Positions 19,780 through 39,401 of a stretch of DNA of 64,000 nt are shown here, piece after piece; position 1 is the first letter of the stretch, and every line of letters begins with the position of its first letter. The DNA lies in NCBI GenBank assembly GCA_016875335.1, contig VGRO01000004.1:32158-96157 (forward strand), given 5' to 3'. The notes under the pieces were generated by a model. That model was not told the DNA's origin and searched no databases. It saw only the letters and a program-made list of their open reading frames with translations. Origin of the DNA: Deltaproteobacteria bacterium. Lineage in GTDB: Bacteria; Myxococcota_A; UBA9042. The position numbers and the translations under genes were made by a program.

Positions 19780-21532
19780 CTACAAGTCGAACGCGAGGCC
19801 GAACGTGAACACGCCGTCGCTGAGATCGATGCTCTTGGCGTTGCCGAAGTCGTTGAGCACGCGCCGATCGTATTCGATGTACAGGTAGCTGTGGTTGACG
19901 CCCATCTCGATGTCGAAACTGCGGGCGGCGCTCGGCTCCAACACGTCCATCAGAAAGCGCAGGCCGGCCACCGCGTGCCAGCCGCCGGTGCCGCCGAGCG
20001 CCTCCAGCTTGGTGCCGGCGGTGGTGGTGTAGGTCGCGTAGTCGCCGCTGCCGTTGAGCATCCACCAAAAGGCGTACATGGCGCCAATCTTGGCGTAGGG
20101 CACGAACGGGATGCCGGCCTTGTGGGCGAGCGGATCGAGGCGGTAGGTCAGGTCCAGGCTGAGCGGCACGATTTTCAAGGTGGTGGCGTCGGTGCTGGCC
20201 TTGCCGGTCGATTTCTCGAGGCCTTTGCCCTCCTTGGTGAACCAGCCGTAACCCAAGCCGACGGACAGCGAGCCAAAGCGGTCCCACAGACGCACGTCCG
20301 CGGCGCCGCCGATCTCCCAATCGGCGTTGCCGAAGATGTCGGCGTACGGCTTGGCCTTGCCGCCAAAAGGCGCGTCGATGCCGGGCAGGTAGCGGGTCGC
20401 GCGAAATTCGGCGCTGTTGTCGAGCGGCGAGTCGGCGTAAGCCGTCGCGGATCCCGTGCCCACTGCGGTCAGTACCAGCGCGGCCACCGCCAGGCCCCTG
20501 CGCCAGCGCCAGCCGCCGATGGCCAGAAGGGCCGCCAGCCCGGCCAGCCACCAGCCGCCGGCCGCCGGACGCGCGCCCGCGCTGCATGGGGCAAAGCCGC
20601 CCTCCTCGGTGCCGCCAGAGGTCTGGTAGTGCTGCCACGCGTCGATGACGTCGATGGGGGTGCCCTTGCCCAACTCTGAATAGCCCGACTCGTTGCCGTG
20701 ATCGTCCACGGCCGTGACCACCACGTAGTAGGGCGTACCGTTAGTCAAGTCCTTGATCTGGTAGTATTTTGTGGTCACCAGGGCGGACTTCTGCGGCTTG
20801 ATCGTCCCGGCGGCCACGCCGGTGGGATCGATCGGCAACGTCGCCCAATACACATGACTGCCCGCAACCTTGCTGCTGTCGCCGTGCTTCCAGGTAGCGG
20901 TCAGGTTGCCGCCACCGGGAGCAACGGACGACAGCGTGGGCGCGGGCGGGCCCGCCAGGTCGACGAGGATCTTGCTTTTGAACGCCACGACCTGCTGGTT
21001 GACGCCGGTCGACGCCTGGTCATTGACCAGGAAATACACGAAGGCGTCCTGTTCGCTGTTCTCGTCACAGGTCGTGTCCTTGCCGAGCAGCTGGTGCAGC
21101 TGGACCTCGACGCTGTAGGTCGCGCCGAGCTTGTAGGTCTGCTCGCTGTGCACGATGCACGAGGTGTTGGTGTCGTCCTTTTGCAGCGTGGTCTCGCCGC
21201 ACGCCTTGCCGCGCGGTGCGACCTTGACGACGCCGCTGTAGTTGCCGGGAAAGGACGGCGCCCAGGTCCAGTTGATTTTGACCACGGGGTTGGCCGCCGC
21301 CATGATCGCTTTGCAATCGGCGCGGTTGATGTAGTGCACGTCGTTGGCCTGGCCCGGCGTCGAGGCGCCCACGCCGAAATGGCTGGGCGGCGCCCAATCG
21401 GAACCCGAGGCGGTCTCAATGCTTTGGATGGCGACGACCGGCACCGCCCAGGCCGCGGTCGACCACACCGCCGCCGCACACGCCACCACAGCCGCGCCGA
21501 TGCCTTGGGTCCACGGGGTCCTACGGGTCATG
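19780..21532 (-). CDS. secreted protein: N-terminal FN3-like/Ig-like domains, an internal MYXO-CTERM-like motif, then an in-frame C-terminal ~200-aa domain with a signal-peptide-like start and an OMP-like terminus
   Basis: Signal peptide MTRRTPWTQGIGAAVVACAAAVWSTAAWA from ATG 21532. FN3-like segment (...TPYYVVVTAVDDHGNESGYSELG). Internal ...APCSAGARPAAGGWWLAGLAALLAIGGWRWRRG at 20497-20605, followed directly by LAVAALVLTAVGTGSATAYA↓DSP... and a C-terminus ...GVFTFGLAFDL. Confidence 0.6.
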
Positions 21533-21720
21533 CCTCTCCTGCGGGCAGCGACCGCAATCGGCGGTCCCGCACCGAACCGCCTTGCACGCGCCGTGCCAAG
21601 GTCGCGCCGTGCCAAAAGCCGTGCAGACGGGCATTTGTTCCCGTCGGCCGACGAGCGGGGTTGGCCATTTCGGTCACGCGAGGACCGCGCCACAGCGGTT
21701 GCGTGCCATTTTGGCAAGGG

Positions 21721-25989: not shown

Positions 25990-26268
25990 CTACTTGCCGT
26001 CGACCTTGTTCTTCAGTTCGAGGCCCACCTTGAAGAACGGCATCTTCTTGGGGCCGACCTTGACCGCGGTGCCGGTCTTGGGGTTGCGGCCGGTGTACGC
26101 CGGGTAGTTGCGCACGGTGAAGTTGCCAAAATTGCGAATCTCGATGCGCTCGTCCTTCTTCATCGCGTCGACCATCAGGTCGAAGATGGAGTTCACGACG
26201 GTGGACGCCTTGTCCTTGGTCAGGTTGGCTTTGGACGCGACGGCTTCGATGAGGTCAGACTTGGTCAT
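25990..26268 (-). CDS. HU/IHF-family nucleoid DNA-binding protein
   Basis: 92 aa; MTKSDLIEAVASKANLTKDKASTVVNSIFDLMVDAMKKDERIEIRNFGNFTVRNYPAYTGRNPKTGTAV... Confidence 0.85.
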   Translation of the reverse strand: MTKSDLIEAVASKANLTKDKASTVVNSIFDLMVDAMKKDERIEIRNFGNFTVRNYPAYTGRNPKTGTAVKVGPKKMPFFKVGLELKNKVDGK

Positions 26269-26621
26269 GGCAGGGCCTCTGAGGGAACGGGTTGCGCGGC
26301 AATTGCGTCAACCGGGTGGATGGGTGGGCTGCGGAACCGTGGGAACAAAGGCAGACCGTCCGGCGGTGCGGCCCAACGCGCCAGTCCGGCGGACTGGGGG
26401 CGCCGCAGTCGGCGGCGGTCCCGAGACCGTGTTCCAGCCGGTCGGGGCACGGGCGTTGGACCCAACCCCTTGAACTGGCTGCAAGTTCCTCGCCAGCGCG
26501 ACCCCGCGCAGCAAGGGGATGCGGAGTGTAGGGCGGTTGCACCCAAGGTGCAAGGGGTCGCCATGTTTTTTCGGCAGGTTGCGGCCAACGGCGCCGCGCA
26601 CGCTCGCGATCGGCCCGCCTG

Positions 26622-28817
26622 CTATGGGCACTTGAGGTTCTTGTTGGGCTGCAGCGGGTACTTCTTCGTCCACAAATCTCCTTTGGAATCTGAGCCCTTG
26701 CAGGGCTTGAACGAGGCTGGCGACCACGTCGCGACGCCCGCGCACCACATGTCCTGCATGTCCATGGTCGGACCGGTCTTGGCGGTGTGCAGCTTGCCGT
26801 CGAGGTACACCTTGATCGTCGGCGTCGATTTGCCAAAGCCGTTGTTCGAGAAATAGTAGACCCCGACGAAGTACGGCAGGTTGGGCTGGGGCACGTGCAC
26901 GGCGATGATCTCCGGCCCCCACCCGTCCTTGTCGTCGCGGTCCAAGGCGGCGTCGTCGTCGAAATCGTCGCTTTTTCCCCACTTGCCGACCACGTTCCAC
27001 ACCGAGCAGTCCAGGCACGGCGCGTACCACGGGTCGGGCTCCCCGTTCTTGTCCAGGTCGGGTTGACCGGGTTCGTCGGGCGCGTCGGCGTGGGCAAGGT
27101 GGACATCCAGGTCCGATCCCGCCGGCTTGCTGCCGGTGGCCGGGTCGGTCTCGTCGGTCTTGTCGGGATCGGCCGGGGTATCCCAGGTCAGTTCGACGTA
27201 GAGCTTGTCGTCGCTGATGACGTTCAGCTCGTAGCTGGTCGGCCCGCAGCCGGGCGTGTCGAACGCATCCGCGATTTCAAGGGTCACCACGTATTTGCCG
27301 GCGATGTTCGGTTGCAGTTGCGGAGTCTTGACGTTGGCGGACGGCTGGAAGGTCGCGTACGACCCGGCCGGCTGCTGCAGGGTCCACTTGTACTTGGCGA
27401 TCGGCTGCCCGCTCGACCCCGGGACCGAGCAGCCGGCGTCGAACTTGAGCTTGCTTTGCGGCAGCACGTCGCCGCTGAGTGAACCGCCGGTCGCCAGCTT
27501 GACTGCCATGCACGCCTTGGGGCACTGCACCGTCGCCGCCGCCTTGCCTTGCAGCGCAAAGGCCGCGATTCCGGCGTTGCTGGTCACTGCGATCTTGCCC
27601 TTGCTGCTCGCACCCAACTGCGGTGCCGTGTAGCTCACGCCCAGGCTGCAGGTGGCGCCCTTGGGCACGACGACAGGGTGGGCGGCGCTCGGCGGCTTGC
27701 CGTTGAAACACGTGGACGCAAAGCTGACGGCAAAGCCCTGATCGACACCCTCGGCCACAGCGACGTCGGTGATGGCCAGATCTTCGGTGCCGCACGCCTG
27801 AATCTGCACTTCGCGCGGCTGCGGCACGCCGACGGGCACGACGCCGAAGTCGATGGGCCCTGGCGGCACGAATTTCACGCACGGCCCGGTGGTGTTGACG
27901 ACAAAGCTCAGGTCGACCTTTTCCTTGCCCGGCTCGTTGGTGGTGAGCCGCAGGATGGCCTGCGCCTTCTCCTCGCTGGCCAGATTCTTGAAAACGACCG
28001 GAATCTCCAGGGCGGTGCCGGCCGCGATTTCGACGGTCTTGCCTGCCGGCAGGTCGGCGCCTTTGGCAATGGTGTAGGGGCCGAGTTGGGCTTGCAAGGG
28101 CAGCGATCCGAGCATGGTGGCCGCGGAAAGGACCGCAGCCCCCTTGCCGTCGTTGGCGCAGAGCACGGTTGCCGTCGCCCCTTGGGCCAGACCGACCTTG
28201 CCGAAATCGGTGGTGGACGGCGTACAGTCCAGCTTGGGTGAGCCCAACCGCGTGGCAAACGTGGCCGTCCACGGCGTGTCGCCCTGCTTGACATCCCCTG
28301 AAAACGTGATCGCTACCTTGTACTTGCGCAGATCCGACCCCGCCGGCCGGGTGTAGCGCACGCTGAAGTTGACTTGGGTCAGCGCGCCAGCCGGCGCACA
28401 CTTGGGGTCGAATCCGGCTGGGATGACCGCCGGGAAGCCGGCCGGCGCACAGGGCTTGCCGTCGTGGGCGACACAGGCGAAGGCCGGCGCGGACACGGGC
28501 TTGCCGTCGCCGTCCGTTTCTTGCAGGGCGACGGCCTTGACGACCAGCGGCCGGCCCGACACCGCCTGCGCGTCGTTGCGGATGCGAAAGCTGAACTCGC
28601 GCGCGCCACCTGGCTGCAGGGCCACCACGTCGATGTCATAGGCGATGCCCGCAGCGTTGCCGGCCGCGTCCGAAACGCGCAGCACCGCGTTGTGGTCGAT
28701 GTTTTCGTTGGCGCATGCGCCGGACGTCGGCGCGTCGGTGCCGCAGCCGAGCACAGGGCCAGCGAGCACCGCGCCGGCAAGGCCGCAGGTTGTCCAGCTC
28801 CACATCCGACTGCGCAT
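26622..28817 (-). CDS. large secreted lipoprotein, paralog 1 of 3 (DUF1573/ASH-like Ig-fold repeats plus conserved acidic C-terminal domain)
   Basis: Lipobox start MRSRMWSWTTCGLAGAVLAGPVLGC at 28817. Repeats of PIDFGVVPVGVPQPREVQIQACGTEDLAITDV type. C-terminal domain ...ELTWDTPADPDKTD...DLDVHLAH...DLDKNGEPDPW...LDRDDKDGWGPE...VGVYYF... Confidence 0.7.
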   Translation of the reverse strand: MRSRMWSWTTCGLAGAVLAGPVLGCGTDAPTSGACANENIDHNAVLRVSDAAGNAAGIAYDIDVVALQPGGAREFSFRIRNDAQAVSGRPLVVKAVALQETDGDGKPVSAPAFACVAHDGKPCAPAGFPAVIPAGFDPKCAPAGALTQVNFSVRYTRPAGSDLRKYKVAITFSGDVKQGDTPWTATFATRLGSPKLDCTPSTTDFGKVGLAQGATATVLCANDGKGAAVLSAATMLGSLPLQAQLGPYTIAKGADLPAGKTVEIAAGTALEIPVVFKNLASEEKAQAILRLTTNEPGKEKVDLSFVVNTTGPCVKFVPPGPIDFGVVPVGVPQPREVQIQACGTEDLAITDVAVAEGVDQGFAVSFASTCFNGKPPSAAHPVVVPKGATCSLGVSYTAPQLGASSKGKIAVTSNAGIAAFALQGKAAATVQCPKACMAVKLATGGSLSGDVLPQSKLKFDAGCSVPGSSGQPIAKYKWTLQQPAGSYATFQPSANVKTPQLQPNIAGKYVVTLEIADAFDTPGCGPTSYELNVISDDKLYVELTWDTPADPDKTDETDPATGSKPAGSDLDVHLAHADAPDEPGQPDLDKNGEPDPWYAPCLDCSVWNVVGKWGKSDDFDDDAALDRDDKDGWGPEIIAVHVPQPNLPYFVGVYYFSNNGFGKSTPTIKVYLDGKLHTAKTGPTMDMQDMWCAGVATWSPASFKPCKGSDSKGDLWTKKYPLQPNKNLKCP

Positions 28818-28897
28818 CGACGCCACCACTGCCCGCGGCGCAAAACCGGGCCGCACGCCGCCAGTGTGCCACGCAGGCCGGCCGGGGTCCAAAACGC

Positions 28898-31231
28898 CTA
28901 CTTGGCGCAGGCTTTCAGCGTGATCGAGGTCAAACTCCAGTATTTCGGCACGATTTTGCCCGCCGACGGCGCCTTGAGGTTGGCGCCCCCGAAGTTGGCC
29001 AGGTCGCAGCTGGGCCATTTGACTTGGGTCACCCACCACATTTCACACTCGTTCATCGGCTGGTCGAACTTGGCCTTGAGCGCGCCCATGCAGTAGATGC
29101 GCACCGTCGCGGTGCTGGGCGAGCTGCTGTTGAAGCCGTGCGCGTCCCAGAAGTGCACGCCGACGCCGTAGTCCACGCCGTTCTCGGGCAGTTGCAGGTT
29201 CATGTTCTCGGGTCCCCAGCCGTTGGTGTCGTCGAGATCCAGGCTCGGGTCATCCGTCTGCAAGGCTGCGTTGCCCCACTTCGGGGCCGGGTTGATCCAG
29301 TACACGTCGTACACGCCATTGAACCACGGGTCGGTCTGGCCGTCCTTGTCCAGGTCGGGCTGGCAGTTCTTGGTGACCGTCGCGCTGCACTGTTGGGCTT
29401 GGTAGGCCTTGCTGTGCACCACGTGCAAGTCGAGGTCGGCGCCCTCGGCATTGGGCCCGTCGTCCTGCACGGTGTCCTCGGGGGTGTTCCACAGCAGCTC
29501 TACGTGGAAGGCCACGCTCGGCACCACCAGCACCGACAGGACCGCGGGCGCGCACGATTCGGTGCCACTGTCGTCCCACACCTGCAGCTTGACCTTGTAC
29601 TCGCCGGCTACCGTCAGCCACACGATCGGGCTGCCGTCGGGCTTGGTCCCCGGCACGCCCAACTGCACGTCGGCGGAGGTGTCGTTGGGGTGGAATTTGA
29701 CGCCGACCGCGCCGGCCGGGGCGTCGAGCAGCGTCCACTTGTACTTGACCACCTTTCCGGGCGGCGCGGCGTAGCTGGCAGACCCTTTGAGCTTGAGCGG
29801 CATCTGCGGTTCGATCTGCTCGCCCGGCTCGGGAACGATGACCGGCGTCGGGCACTTGGCCGCGTTACCGGTGCACGATAGCGTAATGGTCTTGTTGGGT
29901 TTCGCCGTCGAGTCGACCAGGTCCAGCTTTGCCGTGAACGGCTGGTTGACCCCGGCGCTGTCCTTGTTCTCGCTCGGTGGCGTACACGCGATGTCGAGCG
30001 TGGCCTTGCCGTTCTTGGCCAGGACCGTCGGCTGGTCCGGGGTCGGCAACTTCGCGTTCTTGAAAGCGTAAACGCCAGCGGTGTCGCCCGCGATCTTGGC
30101 CGAGTTGATCTGCACCTCGCCTTCGCCGCAGTTGGTCAGCGTCACGGTCTTGACCGACTCGGTGCCGACGTACACTAGGCCGTGATCCAAGGCTTTTTCT
30201 GGCTTGACCAAAAGGCACGGCACGTTGAGATTGCCGGCCAACTGCACGGTCGCCGCGCCGGCCGCGTTGCTGGTCAGCGTCAAGGTCGCCTTGCGTCCCT
30301 TGTCGTCGATGGGCGCGAAGACCACTTCGCCGTCCAGGCTCTTGCCCGGTTCAATCAGGATCGGCGGGGCGAAGGTGACGTCCTTGTCGCCCGTCGCGGT
30401 CTTGCCACCAAGCTTGACGGCAAAGGTCTTGTCCTGCAGGGGCCACTGGATGCCGGTGACCTCCAGCATCGCCTCGCCGGTATTCTGAACCGCCAGCGCT
30501 TGCACCGAAGGGGGAGCCCCCGGGGCGACCACGGCGAAATCGACGAACTGCGGCGCTACGTTGATTGCGGGCTTGCCCTGCTTGGTCTGCACGGCGAATT
30601 GCACGAAAGTCTGATCCGGGTCACCATCGGACTTGATCTGCACGTTCACGGACTTGGGCAGGTTGTCGGTCTTCTCGAAGCGGATGACGAAGCGGGCGGC
30701 GTCGATCGCCTCGCGGGTCGTACAGGCCGCCTCGAAGTCCTTGGGCACGATCGACCCCCATGTGTGGTCCTTGCACAGCACCGCGACGCCGTTCTTCTTG
30801 ACGATCTTGCCGTCCTTGTCGGCCGCGAGGCACGAAAACGCCGTCTCGCCGGCCGGCGCCACCACCTCGATCTTGCCGATGAGCAGTTCCAGCGCGGCGC
30901 TGGTCTGTGCCTCATTGGAGATCTGGAAGGCCGTGTCCACGGGCGGACCGCCGATCGTGGTCGCCGCGGCATTGACCACCACCGGGACCGTCGGGTTGAC
31001 GGCGGTCAGGCCCTGGCGCAGTTGCAGCTTGGCCTTGCGGTCCAGGCCCGTGGTGTTGTCCTTGTCGAAGCTGCATTTCTTGGCCACGACCGCGCCGCCG
31101 TCCGGACCCGTGCCCGCGCCGGTTCCCGACGACCCCTCCGACAAACAGGACGCCAAGGCGGCCAGGCACACCAAGGCCCCCGCGATCGCCGCGCTCGCGG
31201 CCGACCGCCCGTTGCAACGCATCTGCATCAT
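28898..31231 (-). CDS. large secreted lipoprotein, paralog 2 of 3
   Basis: Start MMQMRCNGRSAASAAIAGALVCLAALASC. DUF1573-like repeats (FVDFAVVAPGAPPSVQALAVQNTGEAMLEVTGI; LDHGLVYVGTESVKTVTLTNCGEGEVQINS). C-terminus ELLWNTPEDTVQDD...DLDLHVVH...DLDKDGQTDPW...LDLDDTNGWGPEN...VGVHFW... Confidence 0.7.
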   Translation of the reverse strand: MMQMRCNGRSAASAAIAGALVCLAALASCLSEGSSGTGAGTGPDGGAVVAKKCSFDKDNTTGLDRKAKLQLRQGLTAVNPTVPVVVNAAATTIGGPPVDTAFQISNEAQTSAALELLIGKIEVVAPAGETAFSCLAADKDGKIVKKNGVAVLCKDHTWGSIVPKDFEAACTTREAIDAARFVIRFEKTDNLPKSVNVQIKSDGDPDQTFVQFAVQTKQGKPAINVAPQFVDFAVVAPGAPPSVQALAVQNTGEAMLEVTGIQWPLQDKTFAVKLGGKTATGDKDVTFAPPILIEPGKSLDGEVVFAPIDDKGRKATLTLTSNAAGAATVQLAGNLNVPCLLVKPEKALDHGLVYVGTESVKTVTLTNCGEGEVQINSAKIAGDTAGVYAFKNAKLPTPDQPTVLAKNGKATLDIACTPPSENKDSAGVNQPFTAKLDLVDSTAKPNKTITLSCTGNAAKCPTPVIVPEPGEQIEPQMPLKLKGSASYAAPPGKVVKYKWTLLDAPAGAVGVKFHPNDTSADVQLGVPGTKPDGSPIVWLTVAGEYKVKLQVWDDSGTESCAPAVLSVLVVPSVAFHVELLWNTPEDTVQDDGPNAEGADLDLHVVHSKAYQAQQCSATVTKNCQPDLDKDGQTDPWFNGVYDVYWINPAPKWGNAALQTDDPSLDLDDTNGWGPENMNLQLPENGVDYGVGVHFWDAHGFNSSSPSTATVRIYCMGALKAKFDQPMNECEMWWVTQVKWPSCDLANFGGANLKAPSAGKIVPKYWSLTSITLKACAK

Positions 31232-31277
31232 GGTCCTTCTCTGGCGGCGGACGAGCGCGGTCCGCGCGCTGCGGCGG

Positions 31278-33656
31278 CTACTGGGTCTTGCACTGGGTGG
31301 CTGCGCCACCGACCGACCCGTTGAAGACCTTGTTGACGTAGCACTTGGTGATGCACCAGTCGCCCTTTGGCTGCCACATCAGGTTCTTCTTGGCCGGACA
31401 CGAGTAGCCCGATTGGTAGCAGGTGTCGAACACCTTCTTGCTGCCGCCCGATGCGGTGTTCGGCCAGTTGACGCGACCGACGAACCACATGTCGAGCGGG
31501 TCCATCTTGACCTTGGTGAACTGCAAGGCCAAACCGCCCTGGATATAGATGGACACGGTGGCGTAAGAGGTGCCGTAGCCGTGGTCGTTCCAGTAGTGGA
31601 CGCCGACGTGGTAGGCGACCGGGTCGTCGACCGTGCCCTCGGGATCGACCAGGTTCAGGTTCTCTGGACCGGCGCCGTCGGTGTCGTCCAGGTCCAGGGT
31701 CGGGTTGTCCTTGGTGTTGCCGGCGCCGCCCCACTCGGGCGCTGCGTTGAACCAGAACGTGTCCCACGGGTTGCTGAACCACGGATCGGCCTGGCCGTCG
31801 CAGTCCAGGTCGAGCGTCGAGGCCAGCGGGTGCGCAAAGTGCAGGTCGAGGTCGGCGCCGGCCGCGGGGCCGCTGTCGGTCTGGTCGGGGTCCGATGGCG
31901 TATCCCACAGCAGTTCGATGTGCAGGGCGTTGTTGGGGATGACCAGCACCTTCTGGCACGCCGGCACGCACGACTTGCTGTCGTTGGCGTCCCAGACCTC
32001 CAAGCAGAACTCGTATTCGCCGGACGCGTTGGCCAAAATCGACGGGTTGGCGAAGGACGCATTCGGCAACAACGGCTGGTTCGACCCCGCGGGCTGCTTG
32101 ACCGTCCACTTGTACTTCTTGATGGTGCCGCCGCCCGGGGCCTGTGACTTGTCGCCCTTGAGGTGGATGGTGGTCTGCGGCACCACCTGCTCGCCTTCGA
32201 CGACGATGACCTTGGCGATGGGGCAGGTGACCTTGACGCCCACGCCCTCGAGCTGCAACTTGGGCGAAACGAACGCATTGGACTTGACCGTGAGCACCGC
32301 GATGTCGGGCGGCTGACCGTCTTCGGTCAGGTCGCTCGGCGCGTAGGCGACCTTGAACGTGGCCTCGCCGTTGATGGGCAAGGTCATCGGGTTGTCGGCG
32401 CTGATGGGGCCGGTGCCGTTCTTGGTCTTGGAGAAAAGCGGCGTCTGGTCGATGGCGAATTCGTTGCTCTTGGTCTCCCCGGCGATGAAGTCGATGCTGG
32501 TGACCACCAGATCGACCGAACCGCAGTTCTTGATCTTGACCTCGGCGGTCCCGGGGGTGCTGCCCGGCACGGCGCCACCAAAGTTGTACTTGCCGGTCGG
32601 GGTCATGCACAGCGCCGGCACCGCGGTGTTGCCGTAGATGTCGAGCTTGCGGCTGGCGGTGTCGGGATCGGTGCTCTCGAACTTGACCGTGCCCGACTTC
32701 TTCTTGTCGTCCTTGGGCGCGAAGATGACCTCGAACTGCGCCGACTTGCCCACGTCGATTTCGAGCGGTTTGGCGAAGAGCCAGGGCTTGCCGCCCTGAT
32801 GGGCCTCGGTGTCGTGGTCGGCCGGGTCGACGAGCTTGATCGTGTACGCGGGATCGACCTCGGCCATCTTGATCGAGGTCAGCGTCAGCACGGCGTCGCC
32901 AGCGTTGACGGCCTGAAAGGTCTTGGGTTCGGTCTTGCCCGGTTGGGTATAGGGGAAGATCAGACCGTCGGCGGGCTGCAGCTCGAGCTTGGGCTTGCCC
33001 TGCTCGGTCTTGACGGTGAAGGAGAAGGTGCGATCGGACACCTCCTTCATGCCGCCAAGGTGCAGCGTGACCTTGGCCGTCCGGTCCTTGGCGTCAAAGC
33101 GCGTAAAGCGCACGTACAGGCTTTCCTTGTCCGCCTGCCCCGTCTTGGGCGTCAGGCCGACCGGGACGACCTCCTTCCAGGTGGTCTTGTCGCAACGGGT
33201 GGTCAGCGCGGCGTCGTGGAAGCACTCCAGGCTTTGTTTGTCAGGGGTTTCGTCTGGGCTGCCGGGGTTGTAGCCAAACTCGACCTTGGAGATCTTGAGC
33301 GAGGCGGCGTCGGACACGCTCTTGGTGTTGCGAATGAGCACCTGCAGCGCTTCGGTGCTCTTGCCCAGCTTGATCGAGCCCACCGACAACGCGATCGAAC
33401 CAGCGGGGGTCACGGTCTTGCCGAGCGAGGGCACCGTCAACTGGACGGCTGCGTTGCAGTCGATGGCCACGCCCGCGGCCGACACGCCGGTGCCCGACAA
33501 GCACGCGAATTCGCCGATTTTGTCGTTGCTGCCGGGTTTGTCGCCGCCGGGGCCGGAGCCGCCGCCCGGCAACCCGGAGTTACAGGCGGCGGCGAGCGCC
33601 AGGGCTGAGGCCAGCCACAGAGCGCGGGTCGTGCGGTCGGCAAGGCGGGTGTTCAT
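31278..33656 (-). CDS. large secreted lipoprotein, paralog 3 of 3
   Basis: Start MNTRLADRTTRALWLASALALAAAC at 33656, with a GGAG RBS. Same repeat/C-terminal architecture: ELLWDTPSDPDQTD...DLDLHFAH...LDCDGQADPW...LDLDDTDGAGPEN...VGVHYW... Confidence 0.7.
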   Translation of the reverse strand: MNTRLADRTTRALWLASALALAAACNSGLPGGGSGPGGDKPGSNDKIGEFACLSGTGVSAAGVAIDCNAAVQLTVPSLGKTVTPAGSIALSVGSIKLGKSTEALQVLIRNTKSVSDAASLKISKVEFGYNPGSPDETPDKQSLECFHDAALTTRCDKTTWKEVVPVGLTPKTGQADKESLYVRFTRFDAKDRTAKVTLHLGGMKEVSDRTFSFTVKTEQGKPKLELQPADGLIFPYTQPGKTEPKTFQAVNAGDAVLTLTSIKMAEVDPAYTIKLVDPADHDTEAHQGGKPWLFAKPLEIDVGKSAQFEVIFAPKDDKKKSGTVKFESTDPDTASRKLDIYGNTAVPALCMTPTGKYNFGGAVPGSTPGTAEVKIKNCGSVDLVVTSIDFIAGETKSNEFAIDQTPLFSKTKNGTGPISADNPMTLPINGEATFKVAYAPSDLTEDGQPPDIAVLTVKSNAFVSPKLQLEGVGVKVTCPIAKVIVVEGEQVVPQTTIHLKGDKSQAPGGGTIKKYKWTVKQPAGSNQPLLPNASFANPSILANASGEYEFCLEVWDANDSKSCVPACQKVLVIPNNALHIELLWDTPSDPDQTDSGPAAGADLDLHFAHPLASTLDLDCDGQADPWFSNPWDTFWFNAAPEWGGAGNTKDNPTLDLDDTDGAGPENLNLVDPEGTVDDPVAYHVGVHYWNDHGYGTSYATVSIYIQGGLALQFTKVKMDPLDMWFVGRVNWPNTASGGSKKVFDTCYQSGYSCPAKKNLMWQPKGDWCITKCYVNKVFNGSVGGAATQCKTQ

Positions 33657-33959
33657 GGTGCGGCTCCTGCGGAGTGCGGGTTGCGTTGTTTCGTTGGAAG
33701 CGAAGGAGTCAGAAGTTGGCCTGCGCTCGTCGTGGCGTTTGGCCGGTGGCCGTCGGGGTCTGTGGTCCCATCCAGGTCTGCGTTCCCATCCAGGTCTGCG
33801 TTTACTGGGCGCTTGCGGCGCGTACGGTGATGCCGCGGCGCCAACCGCAGGCACAACCTCCCGACTGTAACGGCGGGTCCGCGACCCGTCAACCACAAAA
33901 CGACGCCCAAAATCGGACCCGTGGGCGCGCTGGGGCCGACAGGCCCACGCTCGGCCCGT

Positions 33960-35531
33960 TCAGTCGCCGCCGGTCGGCACCTGATACCACTTGCGGGTCC
34001 ACTCGGTTAGCATGTTGTCGTCGGTGACAAAAGGCGTGTGCAACGTGCGCTCGACCAGTTTGGCGCAGGTTTCGGCCTGGCCGCCGTCGGGGCCGTAGGT
34101 GCTCTGGTCGGCGAGGCGCAAGATCTCGTCCAAGCGGCCGCGGTGCTGGGGATTGGCGAGATCGAAGATCTTGCGGCCGTCGACCACGATCTTTTCCAGT
34201 TCGGCGCGCCAGCGGTCGCGGTCGAGGGCGACCGGTTCGTCGCTCAAATACATGAAATTGATGATGCGCAGGCCGTGCTTGAAAGCGCCGCAGCCGGTCT
34301 TTTGCGCCGTCTCGCTCCAGGTAGTGTTGTAGACGAAAAGCCCGCCGGGGTTGAGGTGGTCCTTGACCAACTGCAGGTATTCCATGCTCAGCAGGTCGGT
34401 GATGTTGCCGCGCCAGTGCCAGGTGGTGTTCTGCAAGACCGTGTCGAACCTTTCTTTCGGGTGCGCGCGCAGCCAGCGGCGGCCGTCGTCGAACACCAGA
34501 TGGACTTTGGGGTTCTTGAGCAGCGACTGCACCTCGGGGAACTTGGCGACCAGCTCGGGGTAGCCGGGGTTGATCTCGACCACCGTCAGATCGGTCACGC
34601 CGGGCAGGTGCGCCACGACCTGCGCCCACGACCCGGACGACAAACCGATCATCAACACTTTCCCTGTATTGCGCGGCAAGCCCGCCAACGCATAGGCTCG
34701 CACGATCAGATTGCGATCGTGCACCACGTCGGTATTGAACACCCCGTCGTACATGCCGCCGCCATAGATCGCGCCGTCTTGGGACACGGTGATGACGCCT
34801 GAACGGTTCTCGACGACGTGGGCGAACTGCTGGCCCTGGTACTTCTTCTTCCACATCAGCCGTTCGTAGAGGCCCGCGTGCAAGCCGGGGCCGGCGAGCG
34901 CCCCGACCACGGCAAAGAGCGGCAACACCATCACGCCCACGGCCTTTTGCACGGGCTCGGTCGAACTCGCCCACCACAGGATCGACGTCAACACGACGCC
35001 CAGGACCATCAGCAGCGCGGAAATGTGTGGCAGCGGTAGCCATTGCATCAGCACAAAGCCGGTGAGCAGCGACCCAGTGACGCTGCCGGCGATGTTGGCG
35101 AGGTAGAGGTAGCTCAGTCTTTCGCCGACCTGCGCATCGGCGGCGATGCCGTAATGGGCGACCAGCGGCAAGATGGCGCCCATCAATCCAGCCGCAAGTG
35201 CGACGGCCGCGAGCGAAAACGCGTACGTGGCGAACGTCACCAATTGCGCCACCGCCGGCGCGAGGAGAAAGCTGACCGCAGTCGAGGCGAGCACCAGCCC
35301 CGCCGGCCAGCGCAGCCGCTTGGGGTCGCCGCCGACGCCGACCTCGTCGCAGACTTTGCGGGCGCCCAGGCTGCCCAACGCGATGCCGGCCAGATACGCA
35401 CCGAGCATGACGGCAAAACTGGACGGCGCGCCGCCGGTCAAGAAGCCATAGACGCGAAACCACACCATTTCGTAGGAAAGTGCGACGTATCCGGCGAGAC
35501 CGGTGACCAGCAGGGCCAGGCGAAATGACAT
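33960..35531 (-). CDS. membrane-anchored polyamine aminopropyltransferase (spermidine synthase-like with N-terminal ~7-TM domain)
   Basis: N-terminal 200 aa are hydrophobic helices. The C-terminal domain has spermidine-synthase motifs (VLMIGLSSGSWAQVV; TVVEINPGYPEL; VFDDGRRWL). This architecture is known from Mycobacterium SpeE. Confidence 0.8.
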   Translation of the reverse strand: MSFRLALLVTGLAGYVALSYEMVWFRVYGFLTGGAPSSFAVMLGAYLAGIALGSLGARKVCDEVGVGGDPKRLRWPAGLVLASTAVSFLLAPAVAQLVTFATYAFSLAAVALAAGLMGAILPLVAHYGIAADAQVGERLSYLYLANIAGSVTGSLLTGFVLMQWLPLPHISALLMVLGVVLTSILWWASSTEPVQKAVGVMVLPLFAVVGALAGPGLHAGLYERLMWKKKYQGQQFAHVVENRSGVITVSQDGAIYGGGMYDGVFNTDVVHDRNLIVRAYALAGLPRNTGKVLMIGLSSGSWAQVVAHLPGVTDLTVVEINPGYPELVAKFPEVQSLLKNPKVHLVFDDGRRWLRAHPKERFDTVLQNTTWHWRGNITDLLSMEYLQLVKDHLNPGGLFVYNTTWSETAQKTGCGAFKHGLRIINFMYLSDEPVALDRDRWRAELEKIVVDGRKIFDLANPQHRGRLDEILRLADQSTYGPDGGQAETCAKLVERTLHTPFVTDDNMLTEWTRKWYQVPTGGD

Positions 35532-35559
35532 GGGCGGCCTTGGGGCGAAGGTTGCGGGA

Positions 35560-35910
35560 TCAGTCCTCGCCGTCCAGGTCGGCCCACAGCAGGCGCGACA
35601 GGACGAGATCGTGCAGATCCTCGGGCACGGGGTGGGCGCTCAACAGCACCGGCGCCGCGGCGACAGCCCGTGCCAGTTGGCCGGGATCGGCGATGGCCCG
35701 CAGGCGCACCACGCCGTTTTCATTCTCCAGCAGTGCGCTCGGACCCGAGGTGCACGCCGACAGACAACTGGACCGTCCGACCTCTGCCGTCGCGCCCTGG
35801 GCCTTGGCCGCTTTCTTGGCGGCGGAGGTCATGCGGGCCAGCGACGCCGTCGGCGCAGGGCGCGGACAGCCGGAGCACAGGTGGATGCGCAGGTGGACGC
35901 CGTCGCTCAT
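35560..35910 (-). CDS. small Cys-motif protein (thioredoxin-like [2Fe-2S] ferredoxin-like / DUF1636-like); start overlaps the upstream stop (ATGA)
   Basis: MSDGVHLRIHLCSGCPRP...SSCLSACTSGPSALLENENGVVRLRAI (CxxC ... CxxxC-GP). Its ATG at 35910 overlaps the TGA of the LolA-like gene. Confidence 0.45.
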   Translation of the reverse strand: MSDGVHLRIHLCSGCPRPAPTASLARMTSAAKKAAKAQGATAEVGRSSCLSACTSGPSALLENENGVVRLRAIADPGQLARAVAAAPVLLSAHPVPEDLHDLVLSRLLWADLDGED

Positions 35911-36692
35911 TTGCCGAGCGCCTCGGGCACAAACATCGATTCGGGCAGCGGGGTCTTTTGGTCGACGTCGCGGGTCTCGACCGTGGTCACCGAGTTGCGC
36001 AGGTGGTTGATCATCCGAAACTTCTTCATCACCGTTCGGCCTGGCTCGCCGGCCTGTACCTGATCGACGACGAGCGTCTTGACGTGGGCGCCGGCCTTGT
36101 CGAAGAAGTTGATCTGCCGCGCCAGCCACAGCCGTTCGTCGATCCACAACTGCACTTTGCCGTAGGCATCTTGCCCGTCGACGATCGCCACGTCGATGCG
36201 GGTGCACGGCGCCCCGCCGATGGCCTCGCTGCCGGCCAGCTTGGCCTCGCCGGTCTGCAGCCCGCGGCCCTGCAGGTCACCGAAAGAGAAATCGGTGCCC
36301 ATGAAGGCTTCGTTGCGCTGCGAGCCGCTGATGCGCCGCAGCCGGCCGGTCTTGGGCAGCCACAGGTACTGGCTGGCCGCGCCGCCGCCCTCTTCGAGGA
36401 TGAGCAGTTCGGTGCCGACGGCGTCCGCAGGCTCCAGGAAGGTGACCCGCGACTTGAGGCGTCCGTCCTTGCCTCGCAATACCCGACTCAACGTCAGCCA
36501 CGTCTTGGACTTGCCGCTGGCCAGGGTCAGCGTGACCGACGTCTTGCTCTGGCCGGCCTGAAAGCCGCTGGCGTTGCGGTCGTTGGTCGCCTGCAACACT
36601 TTGCGTGCGGCGGGATCGTCGGCGCCCAGCGCGGGCAAGGACAGGGCCATCGACAAGATCGCCGCGGCGGCCAAGAAAAGATGCATGTCCAC
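35907..36692 (-). CDS. LolA-like outer-membrane lipoprotein-sorting family protein (periplasmic)
   Basis: Signal peptide MDMHLFLAAAAILSMALSLPALGA. Family-typical segments ...YLWLPKTGRLRRISGSQRNEAFMGTDFSFGDL... and ...KVQLWIDERLWLARQINFFDKAG... Confidence 0.65.
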   Translation of the reverse strand: MDMHLFLAAAAILSMALSLPALGADDPAARKVLQATNDRNASGFQAGQSKTSVTLTLASGKSKTWLTLSRVLRGKDGRLKSRVTFLEPADAVGTELLILEEGGGAASQYLWLPKTGRLRRISGSQRNEAFMGTDFSFGDLQGRGLQTGEAKLAGSEAIGGAPCTRIDVAIVDGQDAYGKVQLWIDERLWLARQINFFDKAGAHVKTLVVDQVQAGEPGRTVMKKFRMINHLRNSVTTVETRDVDQKTPLPESMFVPEALGK

Positions 36693-36707
36693 CTCGCGAC
36701 CGCGCGC

Positions 36708-37516
36708 CTACGCCGGCCGTGCGTGCAGCCACGCCTTGGTGCGGGCGTGTTCGGGGGCGCGCTCGGTGCGCTTGACCCGGTAGCCGCAGCCGCGCGAAAT
36801 CAACTGCACCGTGTGGGCGCGACCCGGGAAGGCCGCCTGGAGTGCGGCGAGCACCGCGTCTGTGTCGAAGAACTTGCAGGAAAAAATGTCGAAATACGCG
36901 CGCTGGCTGGCCAGGTCGATGTGCACGGCGATGTGCGATTCGGCGATCATGGTCATCGCCGACAGCCAACTGGCGCCGTCGGGCCCGGCGGCATCGGTCG
37001 ACCGCAGCACGTAGGGCCGCATGATCGGCGTCATGTCGATGCGCGGCGGCAGGTTGTCGAAGAGGTGGAAAAGGCCGTCCATGTCGCTCGGGCCGCAGTA
37101 GCCGTCGATGTTGAGCAACAGGTGCGGACCAAAGTCCTCGCTCGGGTGGACCGGCACCTCGTCGAACGGCCGCGGTCGCCGGGCGGTGTGAACCTCGACG
37201 GAGCGGACCGGCAGCGCGTTCTGGATGTAGGCGTTGGCCTCGTGGACGTCGAAGGCCCGCGGCGCGACCAGATCGACGAAGTAGCACTCGCGAAAGCTGA
37301 AGGTGTGCAAAGTCAGGTGGCCGCCCGGCAGCAATACGAACGCGCTGATGCCGCAGTCGTCGGGTTCGACACCGTTGTAGTACGGCAACAGCATCGGCGG
37401 CATCGCCGGCTGCAGCCCGAGGCGCGCCGGCAGCTCCTCGACCAACTCGTGGATCAACCGGATGTCGTCGAAGCGCGATCGGTGACCGCCAAAGCCATCG
37501 AGCGTATAGTGCAGCA
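36708..37516 (-). CDS. pyruvoyl-dependent AdoMetDC-family decarboxylase, tandem (pseudo-dimeric) fusion
   Basis: Real start MLHYTLDGFGG at 37516; the listed ORF 36708..39254 runs on upstream. The first half has a degenerate HLTLHTFSFRE motif with no Ser. The second half has the processing site AESHIAVHIDLASQRAYFDIFSCKFFD (ES↓H). Confidence 0.7.
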
Positions 37517-37583
37517 TGGTTCCAGGCGCGCGGCGATGGGGTTGTGGGCCGCGGGGCGCGCAATTGTGGCAGAGGTCGCGGTG

Positions 37584-39209
37584 GTGCAAAAGGGGTGCGG
37601 CGCGCAGTTCAGCCGGAGGCGTTCGGCAACGCGTGGGGCCTGCGCGGCGCTTGCGCTGGCGGCGTGGGCCTGTCCGGACCAGACGGCGGCCGATCCGATC
37701 GACGCATCGGAGGCAACGACCCCGACCGCGGACGACCCAGCGGACTTTGGAGGCGATGCGCCGACCGAGGCGCCACCGGCGGGCCCGACGCTTTTTTGGG
37801 GCGCGTGGGTGGGAGCGATCGGCGTCGACTTGGGCGCCGAGGATCCGGCTGAGGATGTGCTGACACTGCGCAACCGCCTGGAGTTGGACGTCCAGCATCC
37901 GCTGCCCGGCGGGCTGCAGACCCGGGTCAGCGCCAGGCTGCTGCACCGCGCCCAAGTCGGCCATGAGGGCGGCGTGCACAGACCGGCTTTTCGCGCAAGT
38001 CTGCCCGATCTGGGCATGCGCTACGACCTCGACAGCCAACTGCGCCACGCCCATGTGCAGTGGTCCGCCCCGTGGGGCCGGCTGACCGTCGGGCGCGACA
38101 CCGCCCAGTGGGGTGCGCTGGAGCTGCAGAGCGCGCTGCGCTTCTTGCAGCCGATGGATTTCAGCAACGGGCTGGTCGGCAGCCTCGCCAACCCGGACGA
38201 GTCCCCGCTCTTGCCCACGCTGATGGCGCGCCTGGAGCGTCCGGTCGGACCCGGCCAGCTCGACCTGGTGTTCCTGCCCTTCTTCGACCAGCACCGCTAT
38301 TCGCCGTTTGCCACCGACGCTGCGTTCGTGCGGCCTGGTCAGGGTCCAGAGCTTTCCGGGTCGATAGGGGCCGTGCTGCGGCGCCTCGACCTGCGGCTGG
38401 ACCGCCAGCTCTCGCAAGCCCTGATGATCGCACTGCAACCGCCGAGCGACACCCCGCTCGACGGCTCGCCGGCCGCGCGCTGGCGGGTGCCGATCGGTCG
38501 GTTCGACGTGGCCCTGGTCGCGGCCTGGACTTGGGATCGCCTGCCTGAGCTGCAATTGGACGCGGACCTGCTGCTGCTGCTGGCGCGCACCGCCGACGCC
38601 GGCTTCGACACAGCCCGGCTGGCGGCGATGTTCGCCGATCCGCAGGTGGCCGCCGCGGCCGACCGCGCCAAGGGCAAGTCGGTGCGCGATCTGGCCAAGG
38701 CGACCTGGCGCCGCCGTGGCATCGTCGGTCTGGAGGCCCAGGGTGAGGTGGCCGAGGGCTGGGTGGCGCGCGGCGAGCTGGCGTGGAGCCACCAGCGGGT
38801 CTTCATGGACACTGGGTTTCGGCCGCTGTTGTCGCCACTGGCCCAGGCCGGCGCCGGGCTGGAGCGCAGCTGGGGGGACCGCGTCGTCGCCCTGGTCGAG
38901 GTCGCAGGCCAGTGGGCCTACCGCGTGCCGGCGGACACGGAGCTGATGTTGGCGGCGGCGGTGCAATGGCAGGTGGGCGGCGGGGTCATCGTGCGGTGGG
39001 GTGAGGCCGACGCCTGGACCGGACAACTGGGCGGCACCTATGGCCTGACATTGCGCGACTGGGCCGTCGCGCCGCGGCTGAGCTGGCAAGCGGGTGATCG
39101 TTGGACTGCGGCGTTGGCCGCCGTGATCGCAGACGGACCGCCCAATTCCATCGGCGGCTGGTTCGGGGCGGACGATCAGGTGATCGTGGAACTGCGGCGC
39201 ACGTTCTAG
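37584..39209 (+). CDS. hypothetical lipoprotein, possibly an outer-membrane beta-barrel (C-terminal ...VELRRTF)
   Basis: Downstream part of listed ORF 35670..39209. Putative GTG start with ...RGACAALALAAWAC lipobox. Sequence is rich in W/Y/F and ends in Phe. The upstream part of that ORF is an antisense shadow. Confidence 0.45.
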   Translation: MQKGCGAQFSRRRSATRGACAALALAAWACPDQTAADPIDASEATTPTADDPADFGGDAPTEAPPAGPTLFWGAWVGAIGVDLGAEDPAEDVLTLRNRLELDVQHPLPGGLQTRVSARLLHRAQVGHEGGVHRPAFRASLPDLGMRYDLDSQLRHAHVQWSAPWGRLTVGRDTAQWGALELQSALRFLQPMDFSNGLVGSLANPDESPLLPTLMARLERPVGPGQLDLVFLPFFDQHRYSPFATDAAFVRPGQGPELSGSIGAVLRRLDLRLDRQLSQALMIALQPPSDTPLDGSPAARWRVPIGRFDVALVAAWTWDRLPELQLDADLLLLLARTADAGFDTARLAAMFADPQVAAAADRAKGKSVRDLAKATWRRRGIVGLEAQGEVAEGWVARGELAWSHQRVFMDTGFRPLLSPLAQAGAGLERSWGDRVVALVEVAGQWAYRVPADTELMLAAAVQWQVGGGVIVRWGEADAWTGQLGGTYGLTLRDWAVAPRLSWQAGDRWTAALAAVIADGPPNSIGGWFGADDQVIVELRRTF

Positions 39210-39401
39210 TTTCTTGCGGCCAGCCTCCGGCTGCTGCCGGCTGCCGCCGTCCAAAAAGTCAAACGCGCCCCCGGTCCAGGCCGCCGCCGCCTTTCTTTCG
39301 GAGGCGACGACGGTCGGATCGGTTGCGCGTTGATCGGCTGCGCCGCGAGTCCGGCCCTGCGGGGAGGCAGAGCCAGCCGTGGCCGTCGCGAGGTCGTGGG
39401 G

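Follow-up and report, generated by a model that had tools for sequence, protein, structure and literature searches.

Three predicted lipoprotein genes on the minus strand

The window analysed here, a stretch of 64,000 nucleotides, derives from a member of an uncultured, mostly freshwater clade of Myxococcota. It contains three consecutive minus-strand genes, designated A, B and C (Table 1), which lie exactly where they were originally predicted and show coding-type GC3 values of 0.84–0.88. The product of gene A is an exact match to NCBI entry MBM4342084.1 ("hypothetical protein FJ100_01710" of a Deltaproteobacteria MAG). The three products align collinearly with 28–30% identity overall and 39–47% in an all-beta C-terminal domain of 200–217 residues (C-domain), so that the acidic C-terminal module they had been suggested to share is real. 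About 100 columns are invariant across the three proteins, among them the motifs already recognised in the original prediction: ELxW-TP, DLD(L/V)H, DLDx(D/N)G..DPW, LDxDDxxGxGPE, VGV(H/Y)(Y/F)(W/F) and MW.

Table 1. Features of the three-gene locus (positions in the window; aa, residues of the product)
Feature	Position	Strand	Remarks
Gene A (P3; third gene of the original prediction)	31278..33656	-	792 aa; ORF and translation
Gene A signal peptide and lipobox LALAAA-C25	33582..33656	-	read from sequence
Gene A disordered Gly/Ser/Pro tether			about 30 residues, aa 26-56, after the lipobox Cys; pLDDT <50 at residues 1-49
Gene A Ig-like beta-sandwiches (three)	32232..33488	-	choice-of-anchor D / ASH-PapD-like; ~aa 57-220, 222-330, 335-475
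Gene A PKD domain	31935..32219	-	~aa 480-574
Gene A C-domain	31281..31931	-	aa 576-792; DUF2135-like, apparently TerD-like beta sandwich
Gene B (P2)	28898..31231	-	777 aa; architecture as in gene A
Gene B lipobox AALAS-C29	31145..31231	-	read from sequence
Gene B PKD domain	~29513..29797	-	
Gene B C-domain	28901..29512	-	without Cys-rich tail
Gene C (P1)	26622..28817	-	731 aa; architecture as in gene A
Gene C lipobox GPVLG-C25	28743..28817	-	read from sequence
Gene C PKD-equivalent region	~27204..27488	-	
Gene C C-domain	26625..27203	-	most divergent of the three (YVELTW, DLDKNG, VGVYYF)
Spacer 5' of gene A	33657..33959	-	303 bp
Sigma-70-like match TTGACG-17-TACAGT	33892..33864		upstream of gene A; consensus match alone, not evidence of function
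Spacer between gene C and HU gene	26269..26621	-	353 bp; no terminator or structured RNA detected
HU gene	25990..26268		downstream of gene C

A positively charged n-region, a hydrophobic h-region and a lipobox of the type [LVI..][ASTVIG][GAS]C can be read directly in all three sequences, as in substrates of SPase II, and the lipobox recurs in almost all orthologues. The products are thus predicted lipoproteins, in agreement with the original reading. At position +2 the orthologues carry S, G, T or A but never K; according to the sorting rule of Myxococcus xanthus this would direct them to the outer membrane.

The full-length AF2 model of the gene A product (pLDDT 89.5) was built on a shallow alignment of the stalk, since a protein word search yielded 10 homologues. 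It shows three beta-sandwich domains followed by a PKD domain and the C-domain. The presence of Ig-like repeats is further corroborated by NCBIfam choice_anch_D (NF012200), which scores 46.3, 58.2 and 47.8 bits in the three proteins (cut-off 45) with two matching stretches in each. The naming of these repeats as ASH/DUF1573 could not be upheld with Pfam, where ASH, HYDIN, Cep192 and DUF1573 all remain below their gathering thresholds (ASH, PF15780, 17–22 bits versus 27; DUF1573, PF07610, 14.7 versus 26.1); the likeness to ASH/PapD-like domains is one of fold. Pfam models for PKD (PF22352 / PF18911 / PF00801) recognise gene A above threshold (33.4 bits versus 27), score 20.2–21 bits in gene B (sub-threshold) and do not match gene C; the region is collinear in the three proteins by alignment and adopts the PKD fold in the gene A model. 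Secreted and cell-surface proteins are the typical carriers of choice-of-anchor D and PKD domains. Like the ASH-PapD and DUF1573 modules of bacterial surface proteins, these domains are generic stalk elements, uninformative on function. Peptidoglycan-binding domains (OmpA, LysM, SPOR) or other domains of the envelope machinery were not found in the three proteins with Pfam and NCBIfam.

The distances between genes A and B (46 bp) and between genes B and C (80 bp) are compatible with transcription as one unit; co-transcription, like joint action of the products, is suggested by these short spacers and the conserved gene order. In other genomes the neighbour upstream of gene A is divergently transcribed, so that in these genomes a promoter has to be located immediately 5' of gene A. 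A terminator had been supposed in the stretch that separates gene C from the HU gene, yet on the minus strand a consensus scan found no hairpin followed by a T-run, folding was no more stable than that of shuffled sequence (z = -0.27) and Rfam gave no match. A functional tie to the polyamine and LolA-like genes upstream was considered and rejected, as this context is shared with a single other locus (L001) among those examined.

The C-terminal domain and its relatives

The AF2 model of the C-domain is all-beta and of high confidence (pLDDT 93.5, pTM 0.90). With the three isolated C-domains, Pfam and NCBIfam returned no match at E ≤ 10, phmmer against PDB sequences yielded a chance-level match to a phage tail-tube protein only (E 0.08) and Foldseek of the model against the PDB gave nothing significant. 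The profile search suggested with the original prediction detected thousands of relatives with similarity well above chance, including 2,636 clusters at 50% identity from metagenomes (E ≤ 1e-30), a count somewhat inflated because the query profile also spanned the PKD domain. All family members are named "hypothetical protein" in the databases, and the literature on DUF2135/YfaP, the yfaS operon and choice-of-anchor D contained no functional study of these domains that we could find. The C-domain did not turn out to be a characterised domain under a known name; it has neither a name nor an assigned function, a Pfam or NCBIfam model or a solved structure.

A remote relationship emerged from profile–profile comparison. 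Aligned with hhalign to a DUF2135 profile of 81 sequences, the C-domain reaches 95.7% probability (E 8.4e-9, 86 columns, 30% identity); with YfaP alone the probability is 63%. Pfam matches to DUF2135 (PF09906) occur in 15 of 123 C-domain relatives (best E 0.0037), all below the gathering threshold and none in the window. Both groups share a series of motifs in the same order, namely (L)xLxW-DT, (T/A)DLDLH, LDxDxTxGxGPE, Yx(V)x(V)xY(Y/W) and a final W. Both are also exported, judging from the signal peptide of YfaP, and both are uncharacterised, yfaP having no regulator or GO assignment (PMC12356324). They differ in context and in size. YfaP is a small protein of the Escherichia coli yfaA-T-S-Q-P alpha-2-macroglobulin operon, whereas the window proteins combine a lipobox with three Ig-like domains and one PKD domain. 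Compared with the compact DUF2135 shape of about 110–130 residues, the C-domain has an insert of about 40 residues (DLDCDGQADPWFSNPWDTFWFNAAPEWG) between DLDLH and the GPE loop, which holds a DxDxDG loop and four conserved Trp/Phe, as well as a longer C-terminal half of which about 90 residues remain unaligned. In class A this half ends in a Cys-rich tail (CYQSGYSC...WCITKCY...C in gene A). Judged from these profiles and motifs, the C-domain is remotely related to the DUF2135 (YfaP) superfamily and best read as a new and unnamed branch of this known but uncharacterised group.

Nearest to the C-domain model are the folds of CBMs, of the beta-sandwich domains at the C-terminus of subtilisins and of TerD, the last apparently being the closest. 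The relation to TerD remains a resemblance at the level of the modelled fold: hhalign against a two-sequence TerD profile was not significant (probability 0.15%, E 0.4), nor was DUF2135 against TerD; Pfam TerD (PF02342) matches neither the window C-domains nor the 123 relatives, and Foldseek against the PDB does not recover TerD. That TerD binds Ca2+ is stated in the title of PDB entry 2kxt and attributed to Pan et al. 2011 in PMC9191617. TerD (2kxt, 2qz7) is a cytoplasmic, stand-alone Ca2+-binding beta sandwich of about 190 residues encoded in ter operons, whereas the window proteins are stalked predicted lipoproteins surrounded by HU, aaRS, PP2C, ASD and polyamine genes, with no ter or TerY-vWA genes nearby. 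Other near systems are Ca2+-dependent beta-sandwich binding modules, i.e. CBM36/60-type CBMs (2xhh), the collagen-binding domain of collagenase (1nqd, 3jqw), PPC (5sv5) and the jelly-roll C-terminal domain of subtilisin (3afg). The comparisons originally proposed (dockerin, thrombospondin type 3, PPC, metalloproteases) produced weak generic beta-sandwich matches only.

E123 is found in all 123 homologues, and D74, D76, D78, G79, D82, D115, D116, D118, G119, G121 and P122 in at least 90% of them. The loop of the insert, D-x-D-x-(D/N)-G..D, is likewise kept in at least 90% and can be classed as Ca2+-type because this pattern belongs to the established Dx[DN]xDG class of Ca2+ loops (PMC3123361). 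The Asp-rich loops, for which Ca2+ coordination had been envisaged, would hence probably bind Ca2+. Less support was obtained for the conserved histidines as metal ligands. H37 and H145 are replaced by Tyr in gene C and its orthologue class, and as Tyr thus occupies two of three positions in class C, a His-based metal site was rejected as a family-wide feature.

Conservation of the triad and selection

The same ordered triad is found at the same chromosomal position in about 30 loci of Myxococcota MAGs; among the 79 loci collected there are 27 complete triads and four two-gene arrays. Wherever the sequenced flank reaches far enough, HU-(aaRS)-PP2C-ASD-fn3-TruA follows downstream. As to copy number, gene C is missing from three loci (L028, L029 and L033) that are syntenic in other respects. 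Since three related genomes do without gene C, the products need not form a strict complex of three parts. In most related genomes genes for vWA-domain partners adjoin these genes.

Orthologues share 35–85% identity and are closer to each other than the paralogues of the window (28–30%). The best matches of each window paralogue are the genes at the same position in other genomes, and for 88 of 89 C-domains the nearest neighbour belongs to the same positional class. Paralogue identity within a locus (0.46, 0.39 and 0.40) equals the value between loci for the same pair of classes, which speaks against recent duplication or gene conversion. The triad is an old conserved unit, probably an operon, and not a recent local expansion.

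The proposed comparison of selection on stalks and C-domains was carried out between the window and its L001 orthologues. With a nucleotide identity of 80–85% L001 is a distinct locus, so that dN/dS can be compared. The C-domains gave 0.007 (gene A), 0.038 (gene B) and 0.083 (gene C), the stalks 0.16–0.28; for reference, HU gave 0.043 and the aaRS 0.067, and thus the C-domain of gene A is held more tightly than both. Over all regions the range of 0.007–0.28 indicates purifying selection throughout. Amino-acid identities of the closest orthologues follow the same gradient, with 77–79% in the N-terminal Ig region and 90–99.5% in the C-domain. The C-domain family as a whole is multi-copy, with many paralogues per genome.

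Possible roles of the predicted lipoproteins

With moderate confidence we propose that A, B and C make up a conserved operon whose products are lipid-anchored stalks presenting a Ca2+-stabilised, non-catalytic binding head, and that the paralogues act together. Each of the three anciently diverged lipoproteins would be anchored via its lipobox Cys and continue in a flexible tether of about 30 residues, a rod, roughly 15–20 nm long, in which three ASH/PapD-like Ig domains are followed by one PKD domain, and the terminal head. The near-invariant residues of the head are mostly Asp, Glu and Gly in the predicted loops (DLDLH, D-x-D-x-D-G..DPW, LDLDDTDGxGPE) together with buried Trp and Tyr. These loops would coordinate two or three Ca2+ ions of structural importance and thereby make the head rigid. 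Kept away from the membrane by the rod, the head would most likely serve as a binding module for an invariant, probably endogenous, ligand of the envelope or matrix, either a glycan or a protein. A, B and C would act jointly, whether by assembling into a hetero-oligomer or by engaging complementary partners.

A more specific alternative sees the head as a Ca2+-dependent lectin or CBM, and the proteins as glycan adhesins, for the organism's own exopolysaccharide or LPS or for glycans of prey or algae; we regard it as possible but rather improbable. An extended version of our proposal, in which A, B and C form an obligate Ca2+-dependent heteromeric complex of the envelope or surface specific to the freshwater Myxococcota clade and the head defines an extensive, as yet unnamed family (some two thousand clusters at 50% identity) bridging DUF2135 (YfaP) and TerD into one Ca2+-binding superfamily, is unlikely.

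It is distinctly doubtful that the proteins face the periplasm from the inner leaflet of the outer membrane, where they would be no surface adhesins but envelope-spanning struts or sensors in contact with an inner-membrane complex or peptidoglycan. The position of the locus among housekeeping genes, its vertical inheritance and the high conservation of the head, as expected with an endogenous partner, would agree with such a location, as would a rod length (taken from the gene A model) similar to the width of the periplasm and the case of YfaP, which as the prototype of DUF2135 possesses a signal peptide and comes from the periplasmic alpha-2-macroglobulin operon. However, the domains of envelope machinery named above are missing, the stalk modules are those of surface or secreted proteins, and many paralogues per genome would be unusual for a core envelope strut.

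Equally little credit can be given to the C-domain as an enzyme, e.g. a metal-dependent hydrolase acting on cell wall, polysaccharide or protein with a His/Asp/Glu active site positioned by the Ig-PKD stalk. Conservation of the head beyond that of housekeeping proteins would be compatible with an enzyme, too, but the His to Tyr replacements in class C, the non-catalytic nature of the closest folds, the failure to match any catalytic Pfam or NCBIfam family even weakly, and acidic residues located in motifs typical of structural Ca2+ sites all argue against it. Finally, a recent local expansion of surface adhesins, with N-terminal repeats that diversify in situ as originally predicted and are subject to positive or relaxed selection, is very improbable, for although the Ig regions are the less conserved part and the family is large, the shared order, the closeness of orthologues, the equal paralogue identities within and between loci and dN/dS values well under 1 everywhere contradict it at the whole-gene level.

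The immediate impact of our proposal of lipid-anchored stalks with a Ca2+-stabilised binding head is limited as the organisms are uncultured and the function is inferred. Nevertheless, the C-domain is abundant in metagenomes and in gene A more constrained than HU or an aminoacyl-tRNA synthetase, and the annotation of Myxococcota MAGs would benefit if it were defined as a family and linked to DUF2135/YfaP and the TerD fold. Ca2+-dependent binding offers a concrete and cheap hypothesis for YfaP of E. coli, a protein long of unknown function. Should the heteromeric, bridging version prove true, it would give a first functional handle on DUF2135 and possibly a link to the vWA-domain partners. The three-paralogue operon represents a clean system for the subfunctionalisation of duplicated surface lipoproteins.

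Architecture of the predicted tandem lipoproteins

Three consecutive genes of the window, designated A, B and C in order of transcription, encode proteins that are collinear from the signal peptide to the C-terminus (MAFFT alignment; coordinates in the table). Their pairwise identity is 28-30% overall and 39-47% over the last ~215 residues. The triplet with shared C-terminal motifs described in the original prediction is thus correct, since all motifs quoted there are invariant or nearly so. The G+C content of the window is 65-73%. The protein of gene A is deposited at NCBI as MBM4342084.1 (FJ100_01710), and the same metagenome-assembled genome (MAG) contains at least one further family member (FJ100_07105, P0136). 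In translation, a basic n-region and a hydrophobic stretch lead up to a lipobox at each N-terminus (LALAAA before C25 in A, AALAS before C29 in B, PVLG before C25 in C). The spacers measure 46 bp (A-B) and 80 bp (B-C), and the 303-bp gap 5' of gene A contains a single sigma-70-like consensus match. On the 3' side of gene C a gap of 353 bp precedes a HU gene. The terminator proposed for this gap was not recovered, as a consensus scan revealed no hairpin with T-run on the relevant strand, the predicted fold is not better than that of shuffled sequence (z = -0.27) and Rfam gave no match.

Features of the window and domains of the gene A protein
Feature	Position	Strand	Basis or remark
Gene A (P3), 792 aa	31278..33656	minus	ORF, coding-type GC3 (trio 0.84-0.88)
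Gene B (P2), 777 aa	28898..31231	minus	ORF, coding-type GC3 (trio 0.84-0.88)
Gene C (P1), 731 aa	26622..28817	minus	ORF, coding-type GC3 (trio 0.84-0.88)
Gene A, three sandwich domains	about aa 57-220, 222-330, 335-475		AF2 model
Gene A, PKD domain	about aa 480-574		AF2 model
Gene A, C-domain	aa 576-792		AF2 model
Gap between gene C and HU gene	26269..26621		
2214-aa ORF, Dictyostelium-type Cys-rich repeat	10435..17079	minus	Dicty_CTDC, E 1.1e-7
646-aa protein between ASD and TruA	19780..21720	minus	weak fn3 match only
Spermidine-synthase-domain protein, 523 aa	33960..35531	minus	domain match
LolA-like lipoprotein-sorting-family protein	35907..36692	minus	domain match
848-aa protein, AdoMetDC domain at residues 582-693	36708..39254	minus	domain match
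MC1-family protein, 157 aa	39402..39875	minus	C-terminal 85 residues vs Pfam MC1 (PF05854), E 2.4e-28

In all three proteins choice_anch_D (NCBIfam NF012200) scores above its cut-off in two stretches. The Pfam families ASH, HYDIN-Ig, Cep192_D4 and DUF1573 match only below their gathering thresholds. The K319L-like PKD domain of Pfam lies above threshold in A, below it in B and gives no match in C. Modelled at full length with AF2 (84-row alignment, mean pLDDT 89.5), the gene A protein shows disorder in residues 1-49 and is all-beta in the remainder. This means that the proposed ASH/DUF1573-like Ig repeats, which form a stalk N-terminal to PKD, are rightly named at the level of fold, but at the level of thresholds choice-of-anchor D passes instead.

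Orthology, synteny and selection

In a scan with one genome per GTDB species at least 521 relatives were found, and the best 79 loci were compared, nearly all of which come from Myxococcota MAGs of lakes or groundwater. Among these 79 the C-domain HMM (six-frame ORFs) detected three consecutive family genes on the same strand in 27 loci and two in four; gene C is missing in L028, L029 and L033. Within the arrays the scores always follow one pattern, falling from about 280-330 through 180-245 to 110-195 bits. Downstream of every array with enough sequenced flank, as in the window, there follow HU, in some loci an aaRS, PP2C, aspartate-semialdehyde dehydrogenase (ASD), a ~650-aa fn3 protein and TruA. 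Several records, including L022, L023, L029, L041, L044, L057 and L060, are entitled "uncultured Enterobacteriaceae" or "Klebsiella pneumoniae"; MAGs so titled that contain the triad in myxobacterial synteny are probably mislabelled bins.

By BLASTP, A matches best the first gene of the arrays, B the second and C the third, with 35-85% identity to orthologues versus 28-30% among the paralogues of the window. Mean C-domain identity within positional classes is 0.68 (A-A), 0.56 (B-B) and 0.54 (C-C), and across classes 0.46 (A-B), 0.39 (A-C) and 0.39 (B-C), the cross-class values being the same within and between loci. For 88 of 89 C-domains the nearest neighbour belongs to the same class, and the 51 singleton copies of the retrieved loci are all A-like, the retrieval being biased towards A. 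A Cys-rich tail occurs in class A only. The triad is ancient, conserved and syntenic.

The closest species-representative locus, L001 (SXRM01000383.1), has only 80-85% DNA identity to the window, yet the C-domain of gene A differs in one amino acid over 214 aligned codons (99.5%) at 85% DNA identity; the search listing had given "100% identical" for this pair before the recount. Between window and L001, dN/dS (Nei-Gojobori) of stalk, PKD and C-domain amounts to 0.276, 0.100 and 0.007 in gene A (the last at dS 0.56), 0.207, 0.165 and 0.038 in gene B, and 0.161, 0.086 and 0.083 in gene C, with HU (0.043), aaRS (0.067) and ASD (0.124) for comparison. Purifying selection on the C-domain is very strong. 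Of the suggested diversification in situ there is no sign, with dN/dS of 0.007-0.276, orthologues closer than paralogues and a triad that is syntenic across loci.

The C-terminal domain and its relatives

At E <= 10 the isolated C-domains matched neither Pfam nor NCBIfam, and no PDB sequence was matched significantly. A word-indexed search returned 168 homologues, all annotated "hypothetical protein" and all from Myxococcales, Myxococcota or Deltaproteobacteria MAGs. Some of them (~390-430 aa) comprise only lipobox, acidic linker, PKD and C-domain, which makes PKD plus C-domain the core unit. Searched exhaustively with a profile, 1.84 billion representatives yielded 2,636 clusters at E <= 1e-30, a count from a profile that included PKD and in which a few top matches are giant multi-PKD proteins, so that the true number is probably somewhat lower, in the order of two thousand.

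The AF2 model of the C-domain (123-row alignment) is confident and all-beta (pLDDT 93.5, pTM 0.90), and Foldseek found nothing significant with it in the PDB. The motif series resembles that of DUF2135/YfaP. With hhalign the C-domain profile reached 63% probability against YfaP of E. coli K-12 alone and 95.7% (E 8.4e-9, 86 columns) against a DUF2135 profile of 81 sequences from a dedicated search. Independently of this, DUF2135 is the sole non-Ig Pfam family that recurs in the 123 relatives (15 of them, best E 0.0037, all sub-threshold). The C-domain thus belongs to the DUF2135 superfamily as a remote branch without a name, distinguished by an insert of ~40 aa (DLDCDGQADPWFSNPWDTFWFNAAPEWG) and an extended C-terminal half. 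Neither the C-domain nor DUF2135 aligned significantly with TerD (two sequences verified against PDB); these alignments are collinear and pair the same motifs. The likeness to TerD would be one of fold only. Like the C-domain, DUF2135 and YfaP still await characterisation (PMC12356324).

In the 123 C-domain sequences E123 of the GPE motif is invariant (numbered as in the 250-aa query). Conservation reaches at least 90% for H37, E39, W42, T44, P45, D47, D60, D62, H64, D74, D76, D78, G79, D82, W84, F85, D90, W93, N95, W100, D108, D115, D116, D118, G119, G121, P122, Y140, H145, Y146, D149, D180, W182 and W189. The DDTDGxGPE loop pairs, in the non-significant hhalign alignment, with the GDNxTGEGDGDDE loop of TerD, which we take to be its Ca2+ site; such a site was reportedly described by Pan and co-workers in 2011. 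The residues D74-x-D76-x-D78-G79-x-x-D82 fit the Dx[DN]xDG pattern, a type of Ca2+-binding loop that recurs in numerous folds not related to one another (PMC3123361). From these two loops Ca2+ binding by the C-domain can reasonably be inferred. The same cannot be said of a His-based metal or catalytic site common to the family, because gene C and its orthologues have Tyr in place of H37 and H145.

Genomic neighbourhood and putative role

Directly upstream of the triad lies a polyamine-type gene group (33960..39254, minus strand). Among the 79 loci compared this upstream context is shared only with L001, in which the MC1-type gene is kept as well. MC1 is a non-histone chromatin protein of Methanosarcina-type archaea, and its presence in a myxobacterial genome may merit attention. 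In most other triad genomes a conserved, divergently transcribed block adjoins gene A upstream. It encodes a ~680-aa protein with a vWA match just below threshold (23.2 vs 23.8 bits), one of ~266 aa that resembles OMP barrels, one of ~327 aa that matches nothing in Pfam and two TPR proteins of ~670-690 aa, and is located ~0-8 kb from gene A in loci L005, L006, L008, L012, L023, L025, L028, L044-L048, L051, L060, L061 and L064. This block was not found within the 64-kb window. vWA domains accompany both DUF2135 (VIT-vWA-DUF2135 proteins) and TerD (TerY). The 646-aa fn3 protein is kept downstream of the triad (28-74% identity) in roughly two dozen triad loci with enough sequence, and in 8 loci a Dicty_CTDC-repeat protein lies close to singleton members of the family (e.g., L004:1-2492, minus strand). 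The remaining genes of the window are housekeeping genes (SecD, SecF, RecJ, TruA, ASD and others).

Genes A, B and C are co-oriented, tightly spaced lipobox genes with identical beads-on-a-string architecture. Their products may be co-expressed, lipid-anchored stalks that jointly present the C-domain as a Ca2+-stabilised, non-catalytic binding head, a reading to which we give even chances, most of the uncertainty sitting in its functional steps. In Myxococcus xanthus lipoproteins that lack Lys at position +2 are sorted to the outer membrane. Essentially all complete orthologues have a lipobox followed by S, G, T or A at +2, never by K, so that the proteins would be lipidated and sorted to this membrane. 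The acidic loops of the head are predicted Ca2+ sites; conservation of the entire head, and not merely of a pocket, suggests an invariant and probably endogenous ligand. That the head is specifically a Ca2+-dependent lectin we consider unlikely. A role of the proteins as a periplasmic strut seems quite improbable. That the strongly conserved head is an enzyme is distinctly improbable, since the nearest folds are non-catalytic and the His residues are not conserved in class C, which argues for a binding role. Diversifying adhesins, as originally predicted, are highly improbable in view of dN/dS against L001, synteny and orthology. For the preferred reading of jointly presented binding heads, the conserved gene order and the short spacers suggest that A, B and C would act together.

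The stalk modules are ordinary and the conserved, predicted operon of three paralogues is modestly surprising. The head represents a large, unnamed and uncharacterised family for which profile comparison now provides a remote link to DUF2135.
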